In this document: one piece after another, positions 1 to 28,126 of the stretch | Position numbering within the stretch: position 1 is the stretch's first letter | Layout: the number at the start of each line of letters is the position of its first letter | Source: Elusimicrobiota bacterium | GTDB taxonomy: Bacteria; Elusimicrobiota; Elusimicrobia; UBA1565; UBA9628 | DNA: 64,000 bases | Direction: 5' to 3' | NCBI GenBank assembly: GCA_016212855.1 | Contig: JACRDP010000009.1 | Coordinates: forward strand, 89,275-153,274 | Program-made: the position numbers and the translations under genes | The notes under the pieces: generated by a model | What the model saw: only the letters and a program-made list of their open reading frames with translations | What the model was told of the DNA's origin: nothing | Databases searched by the model: none

Positions 1-375
1 TCTCAACGGCCCATACCGGCTCCTCCGGGAAGCGATCTGACCTCGATCAAAGTCATGGGATGTTTTTTGGCGAAGACTTTGGGCGCGAGTTATGTGCCCG
101 TGGCGTTGACGGCTTACCGATTGGAGACCGACTGGCCGATGATCCCCAATCCGCCTCCGCCGACGATTTCCCGCTCCCTCCCCAAGATTCTTCATGATCT
201 GGACGTCGAGGACGTTCTCGTTGACTTGACGATCTTCAACGCGCCTTCGGGAGGCCGCGATCAACGTTTTCAGGTGGATTTCCAGCTTCCCGATATTCGG
301 CCGGTGGATCACTTCCGCGCGCTGATTTTTGTGGATCACTCTCCTCCGGCACGGATGCTGAGGCGACGTTCCTGA
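1..375 (+). CDS. hypothetical protein, probably 5'-truncated by the window edge
   Basis: Track ORF 55..375. The same frame has no stop codon back to nt 1, so the gene may start upstream of the window. No motif recognised. Confidence 0.3.
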   Translation, partial: SQRPIPAPPGSDLTSIKVMGCFLAKTLGASYVPVALTAYRLETDWPMIPNPPPPTISRSLPKILHDLDVEDVLVDLTIFNAPSGGRDQRFQVDFQLPDIRPVDHFRALIFVDHSPPARMLRRRS

Positions 376-456
376 CGGACGCGCCGGCCGCCGCTTCAAT
401 TTAGCTTGAATGTCCCGAGTGGCGGAACTATAATACGCAAGTCTCAATGGAGGCCG

Positions 457-729
457 GTGAAATACAAGATCAAGGACTTGATCGTCTCCGTGTCAATTTT
501 ACCCCCCAAAGGCCGTTCAAAAAAGTACGTGCATTACCTCGCATGCGGCAGTTCATGCGGCAACACGTGCGACTGGAACCTGTCAGTGATAACGCGAAAT
601 CACGGAAGCGCCACCGAGGAGATGTCGTTCTATAGCGCGCTTGAGAAGCAGCTTGCCTCTCATCTGGCTCGGTTGAAGAAGAGCAACGTGACCCGCAAGA
701 AGCGGTTGAAGTTGCGCAAGAAATCGTGA
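457..729 (+). CDS. small Cys/Ser/Thr-rich peptide, candidate lanthipeptide-type RiPP precursor (paralog 1, 90 aa)
   Basis: Track ORF 406..729 (TTG). I prefer the in-frame GTG at 457 (GGAGG at 449-453) because it reproduces the N-terminus (V/M)KYKIKDL of the paralog at 758. Middle segment is ..HYLACGSSCGNTCDW... The C-terminal block TRNHGSATEEMSFYSALEKQLASHLARLKK plus a K/R tail is shared with paralog 2. Lies directly upstream of the kinase-LanC gene. Confidence 0.55.
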   Translation: MKYKIKDLIVSVSILPPKGRSKKYVHYLACGSSCGNTCDWNLSVITRNHGSATEEMSFYSALEKQLASHLARLKKSNVTRKKRLKLRKKS

Positions 730-757
730 GGCCCGGCTCCAATAGTCGAGGGGACAA

Positions 758-1093
758 ATGAAATATAAGATCAAAGACTTAATGGTGTCGATGGTGGCTT
801 GGCCTTCCCAGGGCTCCAAGGGTCCGATAAAACACTACATGCAGTACCTCGGAAAAGGCTGCGATGGGCCCTGTACCTGCTACAGTGTGACCTGCGGCAA
901 CACTTGTGGCAACACCTGCGACTGGACTATTTCGCACGCGACGAGAAACCACGTCAGCGCCACGGAAGAAATGTCGTTTTATAGCCAGCTCGAAAGGCAG
1001 TTGACGTCTCATCTGGCTCAACTGAAGAAGCGCAGAGCCTCCCTCAAGGGCCGCATCAAATCGTCGAACAAGCCGAAGCGCGCTAAACGTTAG
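758..1093 (+). CDS. small Cys/Ser/Thr-rich peptide, candidate lanthipeptide-type RiPP precursor (paralog 2, 111 aa)
   Basis: ATG preceded by GAGGGG. MKYKIKDLMVS... Middle segment GKGCDGPCTCYSVTCGNTCGNTCDW has 6 Cys. Conserved C-terminal block TRNHVSATEEMSFYSQLERQLTSHLAQLKK plus a basic tail. Paralogous to 457..729. Confidence 0.6.
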   Translation: MKYKIKDLMVSMVAWPSQGSKGPIKHYMQYLGKGCDGPCTCYSVTCGNTCGNTCDWTISHATRNHVSATEEMSFYSQLERQLTSHLAQLKKRRASLKGRIKSSNKPKRAKR

Positions 1094-1097
1094 CGGC

Positions 1098-2222
1098 TTG
1101 AGATCGCGCCTGGCTGGATCGCGGGGAATCGCTTCCCTGTCATTCCGTTTGAGTTCCGCAGTCCGGCTCGAGAAGATCCCGCGATCCGCTAAGGCCCTCT
1201 CTGCCAACCATGCTCGTGACGAGATGATCGGTCTAGTCGTGCGGGCTGACAATGCCCTGCACGTTCCGGTAACGGCGATTAATCTCGAGGTCTGGAATCT
1301 CCTGACCGGCCTTCGGGGCGCCCCGGAGGCGGATGCGGATACCGAGCGCCGCGAGATATTGCGCCGGCTCGTCATGGGTGATATTGTCGAGGTCCTCATC
1401 GACGGGGTGTGGCAGAGCGGCCCGGCGCCGCTCGCGAAAGCGCGCGATCCGCATGCTGCTGATGATGGGATGGAGCTTCGGCGACTCTCCGCCGAGGCGA
1501 TCATGTTGGCATACAAATCTCCGCGTGAGCACTCGTGGGAGCTTCTCAACCTGCTCTACTATTTCAACCGCGCACCTTTGTCACCGCGTTTGAAGCGGTC
1601 GTTGCCTGACGAGGCTGCTTGCCTACGATTTCTGGGTATCGCCAACGGCTCTTGCCGAATAGGCGGAAGGCGCTTCGACTTGCCTTTGCGACTTTCGCAC
1701 AACGGACGGGGATGGCGGACCTGGCGCCGCCAAGGAAATGGGCCGACTCGGCAAGTGATGGATGCAAGGCATAAGGTCTATATCAGTCCTCAGCTAGAGC
1801 AATTGCCGATGGTCTTTCGAACGACTTGTGCGCTCGCGTTTGAATCGAGCGCGGCATCCTTAAAAATCGGCGCGAGCCTGACCGAACTGCTTCGGCCGGA
1901 CAAGATGGTCGTCTATTTCGCGCGAGCGAGCGACGCCCAGGCTTTCGCACGTCGAGTCCTCACGAAAATGCCGCATGTCCGGGCGCAAGGCGTCCCGTTT
2001 TCCTGGCAATTCGGATCGACAGCCCTCGTGTCTCTCGGCGTCGATCCACTTGGGGCATCCGGCCATAGCTGGCGCACGTGGGTTTGCGAGGCTATCTCCA
2101 CCGCGATTTTGAGCGCTCGTCGTAGGGCCTCCCTCGATCCTCAGGCTTTCGTGTCGCGGCGCCTCGAGGCGATCGGTGTCGATACCGAGAGATGGATGCC
2201 GAAGACCTCGTGCCGGCTCTGA
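1098..2222 (+). CDS. HopA1-effector-like protein, candidate phospho-Ser/Thr lyase partner of the adjacent kinase-cyclase
   Basis: 374-aa ORF starting 4 nt after peptide 2. The start is uncertain (TTG 1098 or ATG 1224). The C-terminal half (HKVYISPQ...SLKIGASLTELLRPDKMVVYFARASDAQAF) resembles, from memory, HopA1-family proteins found in class V lanthipeptide clusters. No search was run. Confidence 0.4.
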   Translation: MRSRLAGSRGIASLSFRLSSAVRLEKIPRSAKALSANHARDEMIGLVVRADNALHVPVTAINLEVWNLLTGLRGAPEADADTERREILRRLVMGDIVEVLIDGVWQSGPAPLAKARDPHAADDGMELRRLSAEAIMLAYKSPREHSWELLNLLYYFNRAPLSPRLKRSLPDEAACLRFLGIANGSCRIGGRRFDLPLRLSHNGRGWRTWRRQGNGPTRQVMDARHKVYISPQLEQLPMVFRTTCALAFESSAASLKIGASLTELLRPDKMVVYFARASDAQAFARRVLTKMPHVRAQGVPFSWQFGSTALVSLGVDPLGASGHSWRTWVCEAISTAILSARRRASLDPQAFVSRRLEAIGVDTERWMPKTSCRL

Positions 2223-4638
2223 TAGCTTGAAAAATTTTCTCGATATTGAAATTGATCTAAGTCGGGATCGTTGGCTTCTCCCAAAAGATCTCCTAGTGAC
2301 GCCGATCGAACGTTTCGGCGATAAGTTCGTTCGCAAAGCACTTGGTCGGCCGTTAAGGCGAGGCGAGGGCGCGTTCGTGGCCAGCCGTGCCTTGACGCGC
2401 TCCGATCCGAAGCTGCTCGGCATCGAAGCGCGCGCCTTACTGGAGCGATTCCGCACACCCAGAACTCTCCTGCAGGCCGTGCTGGATCTCGCGGCGGAAC
2501 GGGGGGCGAGCCCCCAAGAGGTACTTAAGGACATCGCCGAGCCGGTCCGGCGTTTTATCGGTGATGGCTTCCTCATAAAATCCGGGCCGCAGAACTCCCT
2601 AACAGGCGGCGTTATCGTCCAGACGCTGCGCGTGGGCCAGCTAGTTCGCGGTCGCCGGGTCATGCGTTGCGTACGTCCGATGATCGATGTCGAGCTTTAT
2701 CTCATCGAAGGTTCCGGGAACCGGCGATGCGCGCTCAAATTGCTTCGGCCACAGTTCCATTCACCGAAGGCAGGGATGTTCGCGAACGAACAGCTGCGGA
2801 GGGAGCGGGCTGCCTTGGAGCAACTCGCTGGGACCGCGGCCGTGCGGCTGGTCGATGCTGGTGATTGGAAGCGCCGGCCGTTCGTGGCAGTCGAGTGGAT
2901 CGATGGTCCGAGCGTCGAGTTGTCGGCCCGAAGGATTCGCACGAGCGGCGCTTCTCCGGTTTCGCGCCAATCTCAGCTTCTGCGGCTCGCCGACGACGCT
3001 TTGGCGGCGTTGGAGAGCATTCACGCGCGGGGCTATTTACACGGAGATATACATCCCCAGAACCTGATTCTCCAGGGGGACCGGGTCCGCGTCATCGATT
3101 TCGGTCTGGCCCGGCGTATAGACGATTTAAGCCGCCCTCCGGTAGTCGGCATGGCCGGGGTCCTCGAGTTCATGCCGCCCGAGGCCGCACGCGCGATGCT
3201 GGACGGCAAGGATTATTATAGACGCACCATTCGTAGCGAAGTGTACTCCGCGGGAGTACTGACTTTTTTCATCCTGACCGGCAAGCTGCCGCATAAACTG
3301 ACGGTACATAGGCGAAAGGCCATCATCGATCTCGCCTCATTCTTGCCGCTTGCCTTTCATCGCCCATTCATTCCGAAGGCAATCGAACAGGTGCTGCGAC
3401 GAGCTCTCGACAAGACTCCCCGGCGGCGCTTTCCGTCCCTTCGGTCCTTCCGCCAAGCCCTCGAACAAGCTACGGCGCCACAAACGTCGGCACCCGCAAT
3501 CAAAACCGGCTCTTTCGCGCACACCCGGAGGGACCTGGACATTATCAGGAGGAAGGTGGGCCTCTTTCTGGAAGGTGTTCGGAAATCCGATCATCGGTCG
3601 CTGTCGCAGTCACTTCGGCCGCCACGCGCCTCCGTCGGTTTTGGTGGCGGTGGCGTGGCTTACGCTCTGCTGCGCGGCTCCGAAGTCTTCGACGACCCGG
3701 GTTTGCTGACGGCGTCCATGAGTTGGATCGAGCAGTGCCAGGCTGGCCTGGATCTCCGATCCGGAATCTACTCGGCTCCCGCAGGTATGACGGCGAAGAC
3801 CATCAATCTCGGGTCTGTCCTTTTTTCAAGGACAGGGCTATCGGCCGTCGAGGTCTTGATCGCAGAAGCCTCAGACATGGCCTCTTCACGTGAACAGGCC
3901 CTGATGCGGGTGAGTTCGACGATTGAACCCGCTTTGCGGAGCTCATCAGACCTCTTTCTGGGGCTGCCAGGCTGGCTTGCTATGGCGACGATACTCGCCA
4001 AGCGCATGGAAGATCCGCGCGCGCTGTCGTGGGCCGGAATCGCGGGACAGACGCTGTTGGATCGCACTCGAACCGACGGCTATGGCGACAGCGGCCTAGG
4101 CCTGGCCCACGGAAGAAGCGGCGTGCTATTTTCACTCATCCAATGGGCCCGAACGGCAGGCGTTGAACTCCCACCGTCGGTCAAGAATGAGACTTTACGC
4201 ATCGCAGAACCGGTCTTGTCCGGCGCCGCACATCCCAGAGAGGCCGGCCCATGGTTTCGAGCGGAGCTGCGCGGGACTCTGTGCAACGGCCTACCGGGCC
4301 TAGCGCTTTTTCTTTCGCGCGCCTACGAGCACTACGGAGATGAAACGCTCTTGGCCGCGGCCCGAGCGGCGATTACGGCAAGCGGACCACATTCCGATCA
4401 CACAAACGTATGCTGTGGCATCGCCGGACGCGCCTACGCTTTGCTGTCCGTCGCCCGGGTGGATCCGAGCGGACCATGGCGCGACCTAGCGCTCAAGCTC
4501 TGCCTGCGTGCGCTCGAGAATCCCTACTCCCGCCCATGGCCCTACGGATTGCTAAAGGGAGCGCCGGGGATCGTCTGTCTTGCCCTGGACATGCTCGACA
4601 CCGATACGACACCTGCTTGCCCGTTCCTGGAAACGTAG
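2176..4638 (+). CDS. Ser/Thr protein kinase domain fused to a LanC-like cyclase domain (lanthipeptide-synthetase-like), with an extra ~130-aa N-terminal module
   Basis: Kinase motifs: CALKLL (Lys), YLHGDIHPQNLIL (catalytic loop), VIDFGLAR (DFG), MPPEAA (APE). LanC-like motifs: GLAHGRSGVLFSL, LCNGLPGLALFL, CCGIAGRAYALL, GLLKGAPGIVCLAL. The start is uncertain (2176, overlapping the upstream ORF by 47 nt, or in-frame TTG 2227). Confidence 0.8.
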   Translation: MSIPRDGCRRPRAGSDSLKNFLDIEIDLSRDRWLLPKDLLVTPIERFGDKFVRKALGRPLRRGEGAFVASRALTRSDPKLLGIEARALLERFRTPRTLLQAVLDLAAERGASPQEVLKDIAEPVRRFIGDGFLIKSGPQNSLTGGVIVQTLRVGQLVRGRRVMRCVRPMIDVELYLIEGSGNRRCALKLLRPQFHSPKAGMFANEQLRRERAALEQLAGTAAVRLVDAGDWKRRPFVAVEWIDGPSVELSARRIRTSGASPVSRQSQLLRLADDALAALESIHARGYLHGDIHPQNLILQGDRVRVIDFGLARRIDDLSRPPVVGMAGVLEFMPPEAARAMLDGKDYYRRTIRSEVYSAGVLTFFILTGKLPHKLTVHRRKAIIDLASFLPLAFHRPFIPKAIEQVLRRALDKTPRRRFPSLRSFRQALEQATAPQTSAPAIKTGSFAHTRRDLDIIRRKVGLFLEGVRKSDHRSLSQSLRPPRASVGFGGGGVAYALLRGSEVFDDPGLLTASMSWIEQCQAGLDLRSGIYSAPAGMTAKTINLGSVLFSRTGLSAVEVLIAEASDMASSREQALMRVSSTIEPALRSSSDLFLGLPGWLAMATILAKRMEDPRALSWAGIAGQTLLDRTRTDGYGDSGLGLAHGRSGVLFSLIQWARTAGVELPPSVKNETLRIAEPVLSGAAHPREAGPWFRAELRGTLCNGLPGLALFLSRAYEHYGDETLLAAARAAITASGPHSDHTNVCCGIAGRAYALLSVARVDPSGPWRDLALKLCLRALENPYSRPWPYGLLKGAPGIVCLALDMLDTDTTPACPFLET

Positions 4639-4957: not shown

Positions 4958-6406
4958 CTAACGATTCAACGCCGGATTCAAACGCACGGCCTCGCGCATC
5001 TGCGCGAGGCCGTCGCTTTTATGGCCTTCGCGAACCAGGAGAAGGCCGAGGTTGTAGCGGGCGGACGCGAAGGACGGGTCGTTCGGCTTGAGCTCGACGG
5101 CCTCGCGAAATAAATAGATGGCGCGGGCCGGATCGCGCTGTGCGACGATGGACGCGAGGTTCACGCGCGCCTCGGCGTCGCGCGGTTCGAGACGCATCGC
5201 GGCTTCAAGGAACGGGACGGCGGCGGCGCCGCGGCCGGCGACGAGCAAGGCGACCGACAAATTCGAGTTAGGCAGATACGCGTCGGGCTGAATCTCGACG
5301 GCGCGGCTCCACAGCGAGACGTCGTCTTTCCAGAACGAGGATTGCCGGATCGTCGCGACGGACAGCGCGAGAGCCGCGCCGTAGAGGACCGCCAGCGATG
5401 TCTGTTTTTTTAGACGGTCCAAACCCAGGCCAAACAAGACGGCGAAGGGCAGGCACGCGAGATACGAATAACGATCCGCGGCGGCTTGGCGTCCGTTCTG
5501 AAGCAGGCCGGACACCGGCGCCAGCGCGATAAGATAAGAAAACCAAACGGGCACAGCCCAGGATCGTACGCGTTTGTGGAAACAGAGGACTGTGACGAGC
5601 TGGGCCAATAGGGCTCCGGGGTACGATTCTTGTCGTATTCCGTCGCCGTTCAAAGAGAGGGCGTAGTAAGGAGAAAGATTGATCGGCATGAGCGTCTTCG
5701 ACAAATAGAACCACGCCCCGTTTCCTGCGACGAGAATTCGATCGAAAAGCCCCAGGTCGACGGCATGCACGTCTCCGGTTGAGAAGCCGCCCAGGTTTTT
5801 ACACGCCGCGAAAAGGCCGACGACGGCGTGTGGAATCAACTGCTTGGCCGACTTTCGATCGAGCACGAATAGAAACGGCAAAACGGCGATGGCCGTGCCC
5901 TTGGACAGAACGGCGAACACGAACGACAGCAACGAAATGTGTTTTCTATTCTCGAGCCACGCCCAAACGGACAGCACTGCGAAGAACCCCGACAAGACGT
6001 CGCGCCGTTCCGTAATCCAGACGACGGATTCCACTCTTAACGGATGGAGAGCGAAGAATAATGCGGCGCCTGCGGCGCCGTAAACAGAAGAGAACGCGCG
6101 CCGGCACGTCAGAAAAACGAGCGCGGCGGTCAGTGAATGAAGCAAAACGTTCGTTCGACGGAATGCAGAGGCATCCAACCCCCAAAGACTATAATCGGCG
6201 CCCCAGGAAAACCACGACAACGGCTGCCACGGACCGTAATGGCGCGTGCTCCACATCCATTTAATATTTGCCCACGACATGCCGCGCCACTTGTCGTTGT
6301 TCAGAAGATTGGCCGCGTCGTCCCACTGAAGGAATTTGGCCGCCGGCGCGAAACTGAAGACGACGAAGACCGTCAGCGCGATGAACGCCGGCGCGTATTT
6401 TTTCAT
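4958..6406 (-). CDS. TMTC/PMT-like GT-C membrane glycosyltransferase with C-terminal TPR repeats
   Basis: Multi-pass hydrophobic N-terminal two thirds with HPLRVESVVWITERRDVL (DUF1736/TMTC-type motif). C-terminal TPR-like repeats (..AEARVNLASIVAQ.., ..ARYNLGLLLVREG..). ATGA overlap with the upstream gene. Confidence 0.6.
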   Translation of the reverse strand: MKKYAPAFIALTVFVVFSFAPAAKFLQWDDAANLLNNDKWRGMSWANIKWMWSTRHYGPWQPLSWFSWGADYSLWGLDASAFRRTNVLLHSLTAALVFLTCRRAFSSVYGAAGAALFFALHPLRVESVVWITERRDVLSGFFAVLSVWAWLENRKHISLLSFVFAVLSKGTAIAVLPFLFVLDRKSAKQLIPHAVVGLFAACKNLGGFSTGDVHAVDLGLFDRILVAGNGAWFYLSKTLMPINLSPYYALSLNGDGIRQESYPGALLAQLVTVLCFHKRVRSWAVPVWFSYLIALAPVSGLLQNGRQAAADRYSYLACLPFAVLFGLGLDRLKKQTSLAVLYGAALALSVATIRQSSFWKDDVSLWSRAVEIQPDAYLPNSNLSVALLVAGRGAAAVPFLEAAMRLEPRDAEARVNLASIVAQRDPARAIYLFREAVELKPNDPSFASARYNLGLLLVREGHKSDGLAQMREAVRLNPALNR

Positions 6407-7731
6407 TTACGCACCCACAGCCGTCCGCAGCCCGAAGGTTTGTAGTAGCGATCGAACGTGCGGGTCATCGACTCCGGCATCCTCTTGAGACACGACTCGC
6501 AGCGGATCGCCGCGCTCGTGCGCGCAGCGGCCAGGGCGTCGTTCAACTGCTTTTCGAGCATCGGCGGCTCGTAATAGTTCTGCGAGTCGTCGGGCACGAA
6601 CCAGAGGTAGGCCGCGTGAGGGCGGTGGAAGGCGTCGCCGCTCCAGATGTCCCAGACGGGCGCGTCCTCGGGCAGGAGCGCGCTGGTACAGCGCCAGCGC
6701 TCGCGCTGGAGCTCGTTGCCCATGCGGATGAGACGGACCGCGTTAGAGCCGGGCAGAACGAGCGAGAGCGCGAGCGCGGCGGCCGCGAGCCGGCGGTCGC
6801 GCCAGGCGAACAGCTCGCGCGCGGCGAAGCCCGCGAGGAAGGGCGCGACGTAGAGCAGATGCTGGGGATAGGCGGAGGGCGTGACGGCCAGGCCGGCGAG
6901 GCCCACGGCGAGCGCGCCGGCTTCCTCCGGACGCTCCCGCCAGCGCCGCAGGCCGGCGAGGCCGAGCGCCCACATGAGCGGATCGGAGAGAAGCGAGGGC
7001 CGCATCGTCGCGATCCAGGCGACGCGCGCGCCGGGATAATGCGCGTTATACTGGACGTACCAGCGCCACAAGCTCCAAAAGCCGTCGCGCACCGCGAAAT
7101 ACGCCGTGCCCGTTCCCACGACCACCGCCCCCCCCAGCACAGCCTCGGCGAAGAAGCGCGCGTCCCGGCGCCGCCACGCGCACCCGGCGAGCAGGCCCGC
7201 CGCCGGGAACACGGCCTTGGGCGAGAACCACAGCGCCAATCCGAGCAGGACCCCCGCCGCGGCCGCCGCGGCGCGTTCGGTACGGCTCAAGACGAACGCG
7301 GCCGCGACGACCAGAAAGGCGGCGGGCATGTCGGGGCGTATCTCGAGCGATTTCTGCGCGAACGCCCCGAACCAGGCGAGCCAGGCCGCGGCGAGAACGC
7401 CTTCGAGCCGGTCGCTTCCCTTGCGCGGGCGCGCGACCAGCGTCAAAGCGCACAGCCAGAACAGCGATATGAACAGGCGCCCGGCGAGCGCCTTCTCGAC
7501 CGGGTCGGACGGTTGAGAGACGACCGGGGCCAGCGCGGCGGCGAGGAGCGGGCCGTGATGCTCGAAGAAATCGCGGAAGGGAAGATTGCCGTGGGACACG
7601 AGCAAGGCCGCGTGCAGATGGGCGAGCTCATCGGTGTCGTAATAGCGGTGCAGCGCGAGGCCCGCGCGCAGCGCCAATGCGCCGAGCAGGACGGCCGCGA
7701 GGCCGGCCCAGGCTCGTTTCCTCAGGGACAT
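6403..7731 (-). CDS. GT-C fold membrane glycosyltransferase-like protein (ArnT/PMT_2-like)
   Basis: The track ORF runs to 8154, but that part overlaps rsmA and is Arg-rich junk. I start at ATG 7731 (MSLRKRAWAGLAAVLLG..). N-terminal DTDELAHLHAALLVSHGNLPFRDFFEHHGPLL, then many TM segments. Confidence 0.5.
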   Translation of the reverse strand: MSLRKRAWAGLAAVLLGALALRAGLALHRYYDTDELAHLHAALLVSHGNLPFRDFFEHHGPLLAAALAPVVSQPSDPVEKALAGRLFISLFWLCALTLVARPRKGSDRLEGVLAAAWLAWFGAFAQKSLEIRPDMPAAFLVVAAAFVLSRTERAAAAAAGVLLGLALWFSPKAVFPAAGLLAGCAWRRRDARFFAEAVLGGAVVVGTGTAYFAVRDGFWSLWRWYVQYNAHYPGARVAWIATMRPSLLSDPLMWALGLAGLRRWRERPEEAGALAVGLAGLAVTPSAYPQHLLYVAPFLAGFAARELFAWRDRRLAAAALALSLVLPGSNAVRLIRMGNELQRERWRCTSALLPEDAPVWDIWSGDAFHRPHAAYLWFVPDDSQNYYEPPMLEKQLNDALAAARTSAAIRCESCLKRMPESMTRTFDRYYKPSGCGRLWVRK

Positions 7732-8498
7732 AAAGCGCGGGCGAGCGAACGCCACGCGTCGAACGGAATCTCCTCGGCCCGGGCCGAAACGCCGATCCCG
7801 GCGGCGGTAAACGCCGCGTCCACCTCGGCGCGCGGCCTGCCGAGAGCCTTCGCGAGCACGCCCGCGGCCATCTTGCGCCGCTGCGTGAAAGCCGTCTTGG
7901 CCAAACGCCAGAAGCCTTTTTGCTCGGACTCGCTCAGGCGCGGCGTCTTCAGGCGTGTCAGCACGACGACTCCGGAATCGACGGCCGGCGGCGGCATGAA
8001 CGCCGAGGGCGGCACCGTCAGCGCGAGCTCCGCGTCGGCGCGCGCGAGCACCGAGAGCGAGAGCAGGCCGTAGTCGGCGCCGCCGAGCTTGGCGACGATC
8101 CGTTCGGCGACCTCGAGCTGGAACATGAGCACGGCGCGGCTCCAGCCGTCCCACTCGAGCAGACGCTGTAAAATGGGAGTGCCGACCGCGTAGGGCAGGT
8201 TGCCCACGACGACGTACGGCCCCGGGAGCGCGCGCAGGTCCAGGCGCAGGAAGTCCTCGTTGATGATGTGCAGATTCTTGGCCGCATCGCCGACCATGCC
8301 GGGCAATTTAGACGCGAGGATGTCGTCGAGCTCGATCGCGGTGACCTTGGCGCCCGTCGCGAGCAGGCGGCCGGTGAGCGCGCCGCGTCCGGGCCCGATC
8401 TCGAGCACCGCGTCGCCGGGGCCGGCGTTCGCCAGCCCGGCGACGTCGTCCCGTGCGCCTTCGTCGCGCAGGAAGTGCTGGCCGAGCCGTCGCGGCAT
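7722..8498 (-). CDS. rsmA: 16S rRNA (adenine1518/1519-N6)-dimethyltransferase
   Basis: MPRRLGQHFL..., SAM motif VLEIGPGRGALT, GNLPY motif. Directly abuts the murC stop. Confidence 0.9.
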   Translation of the reverse strand: MPRRLGQHFLRDEGARDDVAGLANAGPGDAVLEIGPGRGALTGRLLATGAKVTAIELDDILASKLPGMVGDAAKNLHIINEDFLRLDLRALPGPYVVVGNLPYAVGTPILQRLLEWDGWSRAVLMFQLEVAERIVAKLGGADYGLLSLSVLARADAELALTVPPSAFMPPPAVDSGVVVLTRLKTPRLSESEQKGFWRLAKTAFTQRRKMAAGVLAKALGRPRAEVDAAFTAAGIGVSARAEEIPFDAWRSLARALCP

Positions 8499-24539: not shown

Positions 24540-25307
24540 CTACTTGGCGGGCAGGCCCCTCGTGGCCCACGACAGGTTCACGAAGCCGATATCCGAGTCC
24601 GCGAACTCGGCCTTCTCGAGGCGGCCGCTGTTGACCGCGGCCGCGCCCGGCCGGGGGTCGAGCTCGGCGATCACCAGCTGGCCCGAGCCGGGCATCTCCT
24701 CGCGGTACTCGATGCCTTCCTCGCGCAAGTCGTAGGAGTCGCGCGGACGCTTGGGCGCGTCGAGCCTGCGGCGCTCGGTGACGATGACGGCGGCCGCTTC
24801 GGCCTGCTCGACGTAGCCCTCGACGACGCGCAGGCGGATCTCGAAGTGCGCGCGCCGGCTCTCGAGGGATTTCGGATAGAGGGAGATCACGAGCCAGCGG
24901 CCGTCCTTGCGGCCCTTGTGCGTCCGGGCGAAAGCCTTGGCCTTGGAGTTCTCCCCCTTCATGCGTCCCTTGACCTTGACCACCTTCAGGGCGATGGTGG
25001 TCTCGCCTCCGCCGGGCACGCCGCCCTCGCGCAGCGACAGCGGCTCCCAATCCACGGCGTCCTTGTGGATCACGGCGTGCATGGGGCGCGTCAGCTTCGC
25101 CTTGGGGGCGCCGCCGCCGATCTTGAAGCCGTGGCCGGCGACGTCGTCGATCGAAGGGGCGGACGTCGACACGGACACGGTCGAGGTCGAAGAGGTGACC
25201 GTATCGGTGGACGTGGAGACTGTCGCCGTGGACGCGTCCGCGCCGTACATCGGCGACTGGGCCGCGGCGGGCGCGGATATTAATACGGCGAGAATCGCCG
25301 CCCTCAC
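24540..25307 (-). CDS. secreted hypothetical protein with a Ser/Thr-rich linker
   Basis: I start at GTG 25307 (GTGA overlap with the valS stop). Signal VRAAILAVLISAPAAAQS. STATVSTSTDTVTSSTSTVSVSTS low-complexity stretch. Confidence 0.5.
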   Translation of the reverse strand: MRAAILAVLISAPAAAQSPMYGADASTATVSTSTDTVTSSTSTVSVSTSAPSIDDVAGHGFKIGGGAPKAKLTRPMHAVIHKDAVDWEPLSLREGGVPGGGETTIALKVVKVKGRMKGENSKAKAFARTHKGRKDGRWLVISLYPKSLESRRAHFEIRLRVVEGYVEQAEAAAVIVTERRRLDAPKRPRDSYDLREEGIEYREEMPGSGQLVIAELDPRPGAAAVNSGRLEKAEFADSDIGFVNLSWATRGLPAK

Positions 25308-28126
25308 GAGAGTACGGCGATCGTCTCTTTGAGGCGATCGCGGCGGGCCGCCGCGGCGTCGTGCTGCTCTTTGGCCTCGGCGACCTTTTCGGCGGGCGCG
25401 CTGGCGGCGGCGGATAGATTTTTCAGCTTCGCGGCGCATTTCTCGATATCGCCTTCGGCCTTCGCGAGATCCTTGGCCAGGCGCTCGCGCTCCTTGGCGA
25501 AGTCGATGACGCCGGCCAGCGGGATATGGAAGGTGACGCCGTCGGCGACCGCGGTGGCGCTTTGCGCGGGGCGGCCGCCGTTCATGGGCTCGAGGCTTTC
25601 GAGCTGGGCCAGGAGAAGCGCGTACGCGCGGTGCTTCCCGAGCAGGGCGGCGGCGAAGGGGCCCTCGGCCACGGCCTTGATCTTCAGCCCGGGCGGAACG
25701 TTCAGTTGCGAGCGCAGCGAGCGGATCGAGGTCACGGCGCCCATGACCAAGCTCATCTCCTTCTCAACCTCGGGATTCACCCGGCTGCCGTCGAGGACAG
25801 GGTAGCCGCCTCTGAGGATGAACTCGGCGGACTCGCCGGCGTACGCCTTGATCTCGGCGTACAACTCTTCGGTCACGAACGGCATGATCGGGTGCAAAGC
25901 CTTGAGCGAACCGGCCAGGATGTGGACGAGGATGGCCCGCACGGCGTCCTTGCTCTCCCCTTCGGCGCCGGTCAGGCGGCCTTTGGCGAGCTCGATGTAC
26001 CAGGCGCAGAACTCGTCCCACAGGAACACGTACAGCTCCTGCGCCGCGGCGGCGGGATCGTAAGCGTCGAGGCTCGCTTGAGCGTGGGACACGACCCGCT
26101 GATACCGGGACAGGATCCACCGGTCGGCGAATTCCAGATTTTTCGAGCCGAGCGAATAGACCGCGGGGGTCTCGGGCAGGTTCATGAGCACGAAGCGCGT
26201 CGAGTTCCAGAGCTTGTTGACGAAGTTGCGCGCGCCGACGACGGTCTGCTCGTCGAAGGCGATGTCCTTGCCCGGGTGGGCCTGCGCCATCAAGGCGAAG
26301 CGCAGGGCGTCGGTGCCGTGCTTCTCCATCATGACGAGCGGATCGATGACGTTGCCCAGCGACTTCGACATCTTCTTGCCGCTCTTGTCGCGCACGATGC
26401 CGTGGATGACGGCGTCGGGGAAGGCGGGCTTGTCCATGAAGGCGTGGCCCATCATCTGCATGCGGGCGACCCACAGATAGAGGATCTCGTAGCCGGTGAC
26501 GAGGGTCGAGGTCGGGTAGTAATAAGCAAGATCCTTGGTTTTCTCGGGCCAGCCGAACACGGCGAGCGGCCACAGCGCCGAGGAGAACCAAGTGTCGAGC
26601 ACGTCCGAATCTTGATACCAATGATTTTTCCCACATGTTTTACATGTATCTGGCTTAGTCTGACTAACCTTCAATCCCGGGAAACTAGCTATGGACTTTG
26701 CATCGACATCTTTACCCGCTTCGAATTCGAAGAATGGATTCAATGCGAGCAATTCGTCAAATGAAATTCCACCTTCAAGGATTGAGCCAGCTAAATATTG
26801 TTTTACCTGCATGCCAGCGTCTTTCCCGGATTTCAGCTGAACTTCTGTTCCAAGATATGCGATTGGATTTGTGCACGTCAGGCAATACCAAACCGGAATA
26901 CGATGTCCCCACCAAATTTGACGAGAAACGCACCAATCTTTGATGTTAACCAACCAATCACGATACGGCTTAACCCAACTAGTCGGATAAATTTTAAATT
27001 CACCGCTATCTAGGGCTTTAAGCGGTGCTTTGGCTAATTCAATCTGATTAACAAACCACTGGAACGAAAGTAAGGGCTCAATAATGGAGCTGCATCGATA
27101 ACAAATCTGTACTGCACTCTTATGATCTTCCTTCTTTCTTAGATATTTCTCCGACTCAAGATCCGCAATCACTTGATCGTGGGCCTTTTCTCTAGATAAA
27201 CCAGCATACTGGCCAGCCCAATCCGTCAATTTCCCGTCACGCCCTAGCACTTTGATTGCAGGCAATTTATGTCGCTGCCCGATTTCCCAGTCATTCTGAT
27301 CATGCGCGGGTGTAACTTTCAAACAGCCGGTACCGAATTCGAAGTCCACATAGGTATCTTCGATTATTGGAATCGAACGATTTGTGAACGGAATCAGCAC
27401 CCTTTTCCCAATCAAATGCGTCCACCGCTTATCCTTCGGGTTGATTGCGACGGCGGTGTCGCCGAACATCGTTATGGGACGCGTCGTCGCGACGACCGCG
27501 CCCTCGCCCCCGCCTTCGAGCGGATAATGGATGTGGTAAAGAGCGCCCTTCCGTTCTTCCCGTTCGACTTCGATGTCCGACAACGCCGTGCCGCATCGCA
27601 CGCACCAGTTCACGAGACGCTCGCCGCGGTAGATCAGCCCGCGCTCCCACAAGGTTTTGAAGGCGTGGAATACGGCCTTGCCGCGCTCCTCGTCCATCGT
27701 GAAGGCCTCGCGCTTCCAGTCGAGGGACGCGCCGAGACGATGCAATTGGCCCAGGATCGTCTTCTTGCAGTCGCGCGTCCAGACCTGCATGCGCTCGAGG
27801 AAGGCGTCGCGGCCCAACGCGTGACGGTCGATCTTCTCGGCCTTGAGCTGCTTCTCCATCACGTTCTGCGTGGCGATGCCGCCGTGGTCGCAGCCGGGCA
27901 CCCAGCAGGCTTCCTCGCCCTTCATGCGATGATGGCGGATGAACGCGTCCTGCAGGGAATTGTTGAGCGCGTGGCCGATGTGAAGGGCGCCCGTCACGTT
28001 CGGGGGCGGAATCACGATCGTGAACGGAGGCTTGGCGCCGGGTACGGAGCGAGACAGCTGAGCGGCGTCCCAGGACGCGAGGCGCTTCTCCTCGACCGGC
28101 TTGGGATCGTAAGCCTTCTCGAGCAT
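25304..28126 (-). CDS. valS: valine--tRNA ligase
   Basis: PPPNVTGALHIGHA (HIGH), KMSKS, DVLDTWFSS, C-terminal coiled coil. Contains an in-frame low-GC segment at about 26600-27450. Confidence 0.95.
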   Translation of the reverse strand: MLEKAYDPKPVEEKRLASWDAAQLSRSVPGAKPPFTIVIPPPNVTGALHIGHALNNSLQDAFIRHHRMKGEEACWVPGCDHGGIATQNVMEKQLKAEKIDRHALGRDAFLERMQVWTRDCKKTILGQLHRLGASLDWKREAFTMDEERGKAVFHAFKTLWERGLIYRGERLVNWCVRCGTALSDIEVEREERKGALYHIHYPLEGGGEGAVVATTRPITMFGDTAVAINPKDKRWTHLIGKRVLIPFTNRSIPIIEDTYVDFEFGTGCLKVTPAHDQNDWEIGQRHKLPAIKVLGRDGKLTDWAGQYAGLSREKAHDQVIADLESEKYLRKKEDHKSAVQICYRCSSIIEPLLSFQWFVNQIELAKAPLKALDSGEFKIYPTSWVKPYRDWLVNIKDWCVSRQIWWGHRIPVWYCLTCTNPIAYLGTEVQLKSGKDAGMQVKQYLAGSILEGGISFDELLALNPFFEFEAGKDVDAKSIASFPGLKVSQTKPDTCKTCGKNHWYQDSDVLDTWFSSALWPLAVFGWPEKTKDLAYYYPTSTLVTGYEILYLWVARMQMMGHAFMDKPAFPDAVIHGIVRDKSGKKMSKSLGNVIDPLVMMEKHGTDALRFALMAQAHPGKDIAFDEQTVVGARNFVNKLWNSTRFVLMNLPETPAVYSLGSKNLEFADRWILSRYQRVVSHAQASLDAYDPAAAAQELYVFLWDEFCAWYIELAKGRLTGAEGESKDAVRAILVHILAGSLKALHPIMPFVTEELYAEIKAYAGESAEFILRGGYPVLDGSRVNPEVEKEMSLVMGAVTSIRSLRSQLNVPPGLKIKAVAEGPFAAALLGKHRAYALLLAQLESLEPMNGGRPAQSATAVADGVTFHIPLAGVIDFAKERERLAKDLAKAEGDIEKCAAKLKNLSAAASAPAEKVAEAKEQHDAAAARRDRLKETIAVLS

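Follow-up and report, generated by a model that had tools for sequence, protein, structure and literature searches.

A predicted two-protein lanthipeptide-type synthetase in an Elusimicrobiota bacterium: a kinase-LanC fusion encoded beside a stand-alone lyase candidate

The window analyzed here, a 64,000-nt stretch of Elusimicrobiota contig JACRDP010000009.1 (positions 89,275 to 153,274, assembly GCA_016212855.1), carries near its left end an operon encoding two small Cys/Ser/Thr-rich proteins (pepA and pepB), a 374-aa protein (X) and an 820-aa fusion of a protein kinase with a LanC-type cyclase (KC). It is probable that X and KC together form a two-protein lanthipeptide-type synthetase, in which KC phosphorylates and cyclizes the small proteins and X performs the elimination. 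Four co-directional genes at 406-4638, with a layout between class III/IV and class V lanthipeptide systems, had been described in the first-pass annotation of this DNA. That description was accurate and its interpretation was largely right, although the start of pepA has been moved to a GTG codon at position 457. All four open reading frames (ORFs) are present, the operon is self-contained, and the locus does not stand alone but belongs to a large family. Its features are as follows.

406-434, plus strand: sigma-70-type promoter, TTGAAT-17 nt-TATAAT, from a consensus scan with 10/12 consensus matches, directly 5' of pepA
457-729, plus strand: pepA, putative 90-aa precursor; GTG start, GGAGG at 449-453
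758-1093, plus strand: pepB, putative 111-aa precursor; ATG start
1098-2222, plus strand: protein X, predicted lyase, 374 aa; TTG start, alternative ATG at 1224 giving 332 aa
2176-4638, plus strand: KC, kinase-LanC fusion, 820 aa; alternative start at 2227 giving 803 aa
4986-5013, plus strand: terminator-like hairpin, candidate operon end by consensus match only; 12-bp stem, 10 GC pairs, T-rich tail

The predicted structure of X points to a phosphoSer/Thr lyase. An AlphaFold model, built on an alignment of the 22 relatives that a first search returned, had a predicted local distance difference test (pLDDT) score of 81, with values above 90 for residues 85-330 in the numbering of the 332-aa form, which correspond to the lyase part. 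When this model was compared with the PDB by Foldseek, the top matches were exclusively phosphoSer/Thr lyases, led by HopA1 (4rsx, 5e-8), LxmY of the lexapeptide dehydratase LxmKY (9dk1_B, 5e-7) and a second HopA1 entry (4rsw, 5e-7), followed by SpvC, OspF and VirA (2e-5 to 4e-4) and by the lyase domains of ThurKC, SalKC and CuvL (from 1e-3). The HopA1-like fold that had been proposed for this protein is thereby supported, though sequence hidden Markov models (HMMs) are blind to the window protein. No model of Pfam or NCBIfam matched it, with the HopA1 family PF17914 absent even at E <= 10, and searches of the PDB by phmmer and by profile gave no related entry and one chance-level match (E 1.1). 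None of the 22 relatives carried a Pfam domain. Within a broader set of 121 representatives sharing no more than 50% mutual identity, PF17914 weakly matched five (best E 1.1e-4), and PF25816 RamC_N, the class III lyase domain, weakly matched three.

The same 121 representatives were used to analyze conservation, with residues given in 374-aa numbering. Residues Y154, W206, K226, Y228, K256, R266, D268, P300, G314, S324, and R326 are invariant in the family, and Y273 is kept at 90% or more. The spacing of K226-K256-R266-Y273 is 30/10/17, compared with 32/10/17 for R187-K219-R229-Y236 of the class V lyase CaoY. In CaoY, elimination is lost with the substitution K219A or R187A and is impaired with R229Q; K219, R229, and Y236 have been aligned with K136, R148, and Y158 of SpvC (PMC9486802). 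By spacing, K226, K256, and Y273 of X fit SpvC K104, K136, and Y158. This putative mapping of catalytic residues is drawn from the spacing and conservation of the motif and not from a superposition. Taking modelled fold and motif together, we conclude that X is in all likelihood a highly diverged stand-alone phosphoSer/Thr lyase of HopA1/LanY type.

For KC, the complete kinase core fused to a LanC domain, as originally read, was recovered by Pfam, which placed Pkinase (PF00069, 4e-19) at residues 181-419 and LANC_like (PF05147, 6e-19) at residues 490-813, with a short overlapping APH match. The layout consists of an X-like N-domain (~18-178), a Ser/Thr kinase (~181-440), and a LanC-type cyclase (~490-813). 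The best NCBIfam model was class IV LanL (1.6e-45), with a score of 156 bits, where the cut-off is 650 bits, and aligning with KC at model positions 215-801 of 851. Since the alignment begins only at model position 215, the lyase module is missing from KC. The AlphaFold model of KC had a pLDDT of 80; it should be noted that it rests on a shallow alignment, because the full-length homologue search returned six proteins. A search with the N-terminal 190 aa of KC returned nothing, not even KC. The top Foldseek match was the class IV synthetase CuvL (8cav, 1.5e-20), followed by class III ThurKC, SalKC, and PneKC. LanCL1 and LanCL2 were also high matches, and are the closest solved structures to the LanC domain by sequence.

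The catalytic residues of KC are strictly conserved. Across 71 full-length homologues drawn from the related X loci, kinase residues K188, E210, H289, D291, N296, and D308 and cyclase residues H645, C703, C746, and C747 are 100% kept. In an alignment with human LanCL1, C703 falls on Cys276 and C746-C747 on Cys322-His323, which we take to be the zinc ligands of that protein. As read from this alignment, the predicted zinc site of KC is Cys-Cys-Cys (CCG), not Cys-Cys-His (CHG). A three-Cys (CCG) zinc site occurs in ProcM-type class II enzymes, which are highly active lanthipeptide cyclases. The region preceding the kinase was compared with X by hhalign, which gave a probability of 0.1% against the lyase part of X and of 84% (E 7.6e-6, 71 columns) against the N-domain of the X family. 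On this profile evidence, the first ~160 aa of KC are homologous to the X N-domain and not to the lyase, in agreement with the original view of KC as a kinase-LanC fusion without lyase. The predicted secondary structure of the KC N-domain is beta-beta-alpha-beta-beta, three helices and a strand, which is compatible with a winged helix. The N-domains of X and KC may possibly be of the winged-helix type of recognition element found with RiPPs, peptides that are made on the ribosome and altered after translation.

The small proteins upstream of X have the composition of precursors. pepA is composed of an N-terminal motif VKYKIKDLIVSV, a core ACGSSCGNTCDW, a C-terminal helix SFYSALEKQLASHLARL, and a basic tail, and pepB of an N-terminal motif MKYKIKDLMVSM, a 6-Cys core (CDGPCTCYSVTCGNTCGNTCDW), a C-terminal helix, and a basic tail. 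They had been described as tandem paralogues, and indeed share 52% identity (E 2e-33). The ratio of nonsynonymous to synonymous divergence (dN/dS) between them is 0.2, while the proportion of synonymous differences (pS) is 0.64, so that synonymous divergence is near-saturated; both are therefore regarded as real coding genes under purifying selection. HMMs of the family N-motif and C-helix were rebuilt without the window peptides and then scanned over 475 window ORFs. The N-motif model placed pepB first (E 0.004) and pepA second (E 0.013), with the next ORF at 3.2, and the C-helix model placed pepB at the top (E 3e-4).

In the wider family, recognizable precursors lie directly 5' of X in 62 of the 78 loci with enough upstream sequence, one or two per locus, with lengths of 46-281 aa (median 146). 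They do not have the typical leader-core arrangement: they open with an N-terminal motif, have the core in the middle, and close with a conserved C-terminal helix. The consensus of the N-terminal motif is FK(I/V)KDLM(V/I)NVLP, summarized as FKIKDLMVxV. The core is hypervariable and often made of internal repeats, such as CYASGGG five times, CTGHQTHPQE seven times (locus L026), or SGPSQPTGPGC five times, other cores being period-3 or period-4 C(S/T)x runs. The C-terminal amphipathic helix has the minimal form LxxLKxQLxxxL and often grows to a helical stretch of ~60 aa with a Lys-rich tail. Cys accounts for 9.8% of core residues but for 0% in the N-motif and 0.8% in the final 40 residues, and Ser/Thr for 15.7% of the core; at least two Cys plus at least two Ser/Thr are present in 63 of 65 cores. 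Relative to shuffles, the spacings C-x3-[ST] (z 15.9), C-x2-[ST] (z 8.6), and C-[ST] (z 8.0) are enriched, values that are inflated by the internal repeats. These commonest spacings place Cys N-terminal to Ser/Thr, which is the less usual ring direction. Some individual loci deviate in their precursor genes: in L019 the precursor (7075-7441) is broken into two frames and the locus looks decayed or mis-assembled, while an extra precursor-like ORF is found past the downstream kinase in L038 (14957-15202), L039 (14922-15128), and L031 (14875-15156).

The occurrence of the same trio was followed across genomes. A pattern scan of one genome per species located X relatives in 228 genomes of ~14 phyla, the majority of them Acidobacteriota as judged from record titles, with others in Pseudomonadota, Eremiobacterota, Gemmatimonadota, Chloroflexota, Planctomycetota, Bacteroidota, Nitrospirota, Myxococcota, Actinomycetota, Cyanobacteriota, and Melainabacteria. 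Among the carriers available in culture are Bacillus mycoides, B. pfraonensis, and Fimbriimonas ginsengisoli. When the X HMM was run against 1.84 billion representative proteins, 1,598 clusters at 50% identity were obtained at E <= 1e-3, of which 1,144 reached E <= 1e-30; of the 150 best clusters listed, almost all are ~390 aa long. Among loci with at least 2.5 kb of sequence downstream of X, a full kinase-LanC gene lies immediately 3' of X in 71 of 74, is frameshifted in two, and is 750 nt away in one. The supposition that small Cys-rich ORFs would recur beside X and kinase-LanC pairs held across many phyla. In L072 (8883-11324) and L080 (8674-10975) the kinase-LanC gene is divided into two ORFs, with a decayed or mis-assembled look. 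Separately, one or two proteins of ~1160-1180 aa flank the cassette in many loci of Thermoanaerobaculia and other acidobacteria, for example L012 (3737-7252), L023, L038, L039, L052, L061, L075, and L082; by eye, the L012 protein displays a tandem pair of Ser/Thr kinase domains along with a membrane segment and a TolB-like beta-propeller.

From the observed gene content, folds, conservation of catalytic residues, synteny, and precursor architecture, we infer the following process. The kinase domain of KC would phosphorylate Ser/Thr in the central core of pepA and pepB. Subsequently, X would beta-eliminate the phosphate to leave dehydroalanine or dehydrobutyrine, with K256 acting as general base, K226 as enolate stabilizer, and R266 in phosphate binding, assisted by Y273. 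Finally, the zinc-dependent LanC domain would add core Cys to the dehydro residues through His645 and the Cys703/Cys746/Cys747 zinc site, yielding (methyl)lanthionine rings. Recognition may be bipartite, of a leader/follower kind, with the paired N-domains on the enzymes facing two conserved flanks on the precursors, the beta-strand-like N-motif and the C-terminal helix. The proposal extends to the ring pattern, to proteolysis or export, if there is any, and to the role of the product. By analogy with class V lyases, which act as heterodimers with their kinase (LxmKY, CaoKY), X probably docks on the kinase. Moreover, in the model of Goto et al., LanL arose in evolution from kinases, phosphoSer/Thr lyases, and thiol-alkylating enzymes that each stood alone. 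With these heterodimers and this model as precedents, a split synthetase is plausible. The generic description of a lanthipeptide system, in which dehydration machinery and a LanC-type cyclase stand beside a Cys/Ser/Thr precursor, applies to the locus.

Several observations weigh against a two-protein synthetase. Because the sequence models miss X, its assignment as a lyase rests on predicted structure and motif spacing, and the position of SpvC His106, two residues past the first Lys, is occupied in X by the invariant Tyr Y228; CaoY and other class V LanY lyases likewise have no equivalent of this His. The window X has a degenerate N-terminal domain (1098-1400), and the window KC departs from consensus at several non-catalytic positions kept at 90% or more (W702L, W647R, W686H, R672E, and P223V); the Elusimicrobia copy is an outlier of the family. 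Regarding the N-domains, Pfam PqqD matched 3 of 16 (best E 0.019) and ThcOx 2 of 16, all below threshold, and a profile search of the PDB with the KC N-domain gave chance-level matches only, for which reasons the recognition-element proposal is put no higher than a hypothesis. pepA has just three Cys, and among lanthipeptides it is unusual for precursors to be 60-280 aa long and to end in a conserved helix. Furthermore, in all-against-all clustering of ORFs, no accessory family recurred in more than 8 of 83 loci except shadow ORFs overlapping KC, so that no protease, exporter, or tailoring enzyme is conserved in the family; a protease is usually missing from class III and IV clusters as well (PMC8341899).

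A more far-reaching form of the proposal may be entertained tentatively, though we consider it doubtful. The loci could represent a new lanthionine class in which long ribosomal proteins (~60-280 aa) with a repeat Cys/Thr core would be turned into a ladder of thioether rings, as opposed to short secreted peptides. The N-terminal strand would be read by both N-domains, the C-terminal helix would serve as follower or as a lasting coiled coil, and the loci would be a living example of the stand-alone-module stage in the LanL model of Goto et al.

Other chemistry would also fit part of the evidence. It is unlikely, yet worth weighing, that the products are dehydrated or thiol-adducted proteins instead of intramolecular lanthionines, with the LanC domain adding a small-molecule thiol, as eukaryotic LanCL proteins do, or with the dehydroamino acids retained and the Cys residues binding metal. 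The closeness of the LanC domain to LanCL1 and LanCL2 in both sequence and Foldseek ranking would suit a thiol adduct, the His/Cys repeat cores, such as the roughly sevenfold CTGHQTHPQE of L026, would suit metal binding, and the prevalence of C-x3-[ST] with its less usual ring direction also speaks for this reading. However, the joint presence of Cys and Ser/Thr in nearly every core, together with their near-absence from the flanks, is a lanthipeptide-core signature, the overall fold of KC most resembles that of genuine class IV and III synthetases, and the three-Cys zinc site is that of ProcM-type lanthipeptide cyclases.

Even less probable is a role in which the small proteins are regulatory or structural partners while the kinase and lyase edit other phosphoproteins, in the manner of OspF and HopA1. 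Members of those families act on protein kinases, large Ser/Thr kinases flank many of the acidobacterial loci, and Eyles et al. noted many HopA1-LanC loci without obvious precursors that perhaps modify larger proteins; the length and coiled-coil-like C-terminus of the putative precursors would accord with this as well. Conversely, 62 of 78 loci have the small genes immediately 5' and within the operon, conserved flanks around a hypervariable Cys/Ser/Thr core are a classic RiPP pattern, the extra N-domain on both enzymes fits peptide recognition, and no secretion signal or effector context was seen. An anti-phage defense or toxin module built around the Ser/Thr kinase is highly improbable: the KC kinase does match PADLOC PD-T4-6 (1.7e-38), mad6, and MkoA as well as NCBIfam MADS6, but all of these matches are confined to the generic kinase domain (~165-425), PADLOC matches neither X nor the peptides, the neighbors are housekeeping genes, and such a module would account for neither the LanC domain nor the lyase nor the Cys-rich peptides.

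The limits of the operon itself and the start of each gene were also analyzed. The ORF list gives pepA as 406-729, opening at TTG 406; since the promoter occupies 406-434, this TTG is the -35 box and not a start codon. For X, the NCBI annotation uses ATG 1224 (332 aa), and it gives KC as an 803-aa "protein kinase", whose start is placed by the length difference at 2227, 4 nt past the X stop. In Logan contig L083, an independent assembly of the same organism, a separate gene caller puts the genes at 90, 111, 332, and 820 aa. The 374-aa form of X covers positions 17-388 of the 393 in the family HMM with residues 13-371, and because of this near end-to-end alignment TTG 1098 was kept as the likely start and 1224 ranked second. 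The spacers are accordingly 28 nt between pepA and pepB and 4 nt between pepB and X (from TTG 1098), while X and KC are 4 nt apart with the 2227 start or overlap by 47 nt with the 2176 start. An RNA attenuator between pepB and X was considered and rejected, the fold z-score of -0.81 giving no support.

To the left, the locus had been bounded by the window edge, and this has to be corrected. Window positions 1-375 on the plus strand are the 3' end of an upstream gene, which on the overlapping contig L083 encodes a 442-aa erythromycin-esterase-family (PF05139) protein and stops 30 nt 5' of the operon's own promoter. To the right, the hairpin, the strongest of the terminator-like ones, lies 348 nt past the KC stop, within the 3' end of a convergent minus-strand tetratricopeptide repeat (TPR) gene. 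This gene, at 4958-6406, encodes 482 aa with C-terminal TPR repeats and an N-terminal part that is membrane-like by eye. It adjoins 6403-8154, also on the minus strand, encoding a 583-aa, membrane-bound-looking protein with no Pfam match. Among the flanking window ORFs scanned, no protease or exporter was seen, in line with the first-pass annotation, and those with a family match are housekeeping genes (KsgA-type methylase, Mur ligase, valyl-tRNA synthetase, PhoH) or TPR proteins.

The composition of the locus had been taken to mark a distinct island. The guanine plus cytosine (GC) fractions counted by hand were exact, at 0.450 (461-520), 0.567 (3001-3060), and 0.650 (26401-26460), and the low GC is real, at 59.8% for the locus against 65.0% for the window. 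This is about 2.3 standard deviations under the mean and the second-lowest value among 120 overlapping 4.2-kb stretches, of which the lowest, starting from base 1, overlaps the locus. The other low-GC patch of the window, with 55-56% in 26001-28000, is the valyl-tRNA synthetase gene (25304-28126, minus strand). A low GC value is therefore no specific mark of acquired DNA in this genome, and the reading as a genomic island was given little weight, the drop being real but modest.

In the searchable full-text literature, which leaves subscription journals outside, no description was found of a Pkinase-LanC protein with a separate cryptic lyase, or of its precursors. Metagenome surveys report "class IV lanthipeptides" in Acidobacteriota-rich soils; X-KC loci are probably counted among them. 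Domain-based surveys probably file such loci as class IV and miss the lyase, to which Pfam is largely blind. If the proposed chemistry is true, the loci would offer a wealth of hypervariable thioether peptides, rich in repeats and so far untapped, in poorly mined soil phyla, a natural split system for the hand-over of substrate between kinase, lyase, and cyclase, and a possible bipartite leader/follower mode of recognition. They would also provide backing for the modular-assembly model of LanL evolution.

Compared with known systems, the locus departs from the defining architecture of class III, class IV, and class V alike. It is closest in KC to the class IV LanL enzymes (VenL, SgbL, and CuvL), which share the fusion of a Hanks-type kinase to a zinc-type LanC and a small operon without a dedicated protease, and among which CuvL is the best structural match. 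Class IV LanL has an N-terminal OspF-type lyase, whereas KC has none and carries the ~160-aa X-like domain instead. Of the class IV cyclase residues, the catalytic His and zinc ligands are represented by H645, C703, and C746, with Cys747 replacing His as third ligand. The precursors also differ from those of class IV in having a central core and a conserved C-terminal helix. On the basis of its predicted zinc ligands and this structural match, KC is class IV-like.

In X, the likeness is to class V (LxmKY, CaoKY, and the thioamitide enzymes TvaCD/TsaCD). Both have a stand-alone lyase, for which the HopA1 fold is predicted in X, with LxmY as its second-best Foldseek match; the putative catalytic K, R, and Y are spaced as in CaoY, and X would be expected to act in a complex with the separate protein that bears the kinase. 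By contrast, the class V kinase is a separate APH-type LanK (PF01636) and its cyclase is LanX, while here a Pkinase (PF00069) is fused to a canonical LanC. The class V tailoring genes LanD and LanJ are not present at the locus; the class V lyase family PF17914 misses the window X, which carries in addition the N-domain shared with KC. Eyles et al. (2021, Chem Sci) reported from bioinformatics that HopA1-like proteins often neighbor LanC-like proteins, described HopA1-LanC and HopA1-APH fusions, and proposed these to be uncharacterized lanthionine synthetases. Their loci were found via PF17914 and are paired with APH phosphotransferases, whereas those described here have a Pkinase-LanC fusion and a separate lyase from a family mostly invisible to PF17914, and the present precursor family is absent from their account.

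Class III LanKC enzymes (RamC, ThurKC) have the same order of kinase then cyclase, and the lyase domains of ThurKC and SalKC match X structurally. Their cyclase domains are without zinc ligands, in contrast to the three invariant Cys of KC. The streptococcal "class VI" LanKCb has a truncated lyase domain. Class III and class VI enzymes each consist of one chain and have no lyase as a protein of its own, unlike the present system. One review describes LanKCb as a synthetase family that is rare and streptococcal. It is the architecture of the synthetase that defines a lanthipeptide class, and a class IV-type kinase-cyclase with a class V-type lyase stands outside classes I-V and the reported class VI; by the convention of the field, such a layout would likely be named a new class.

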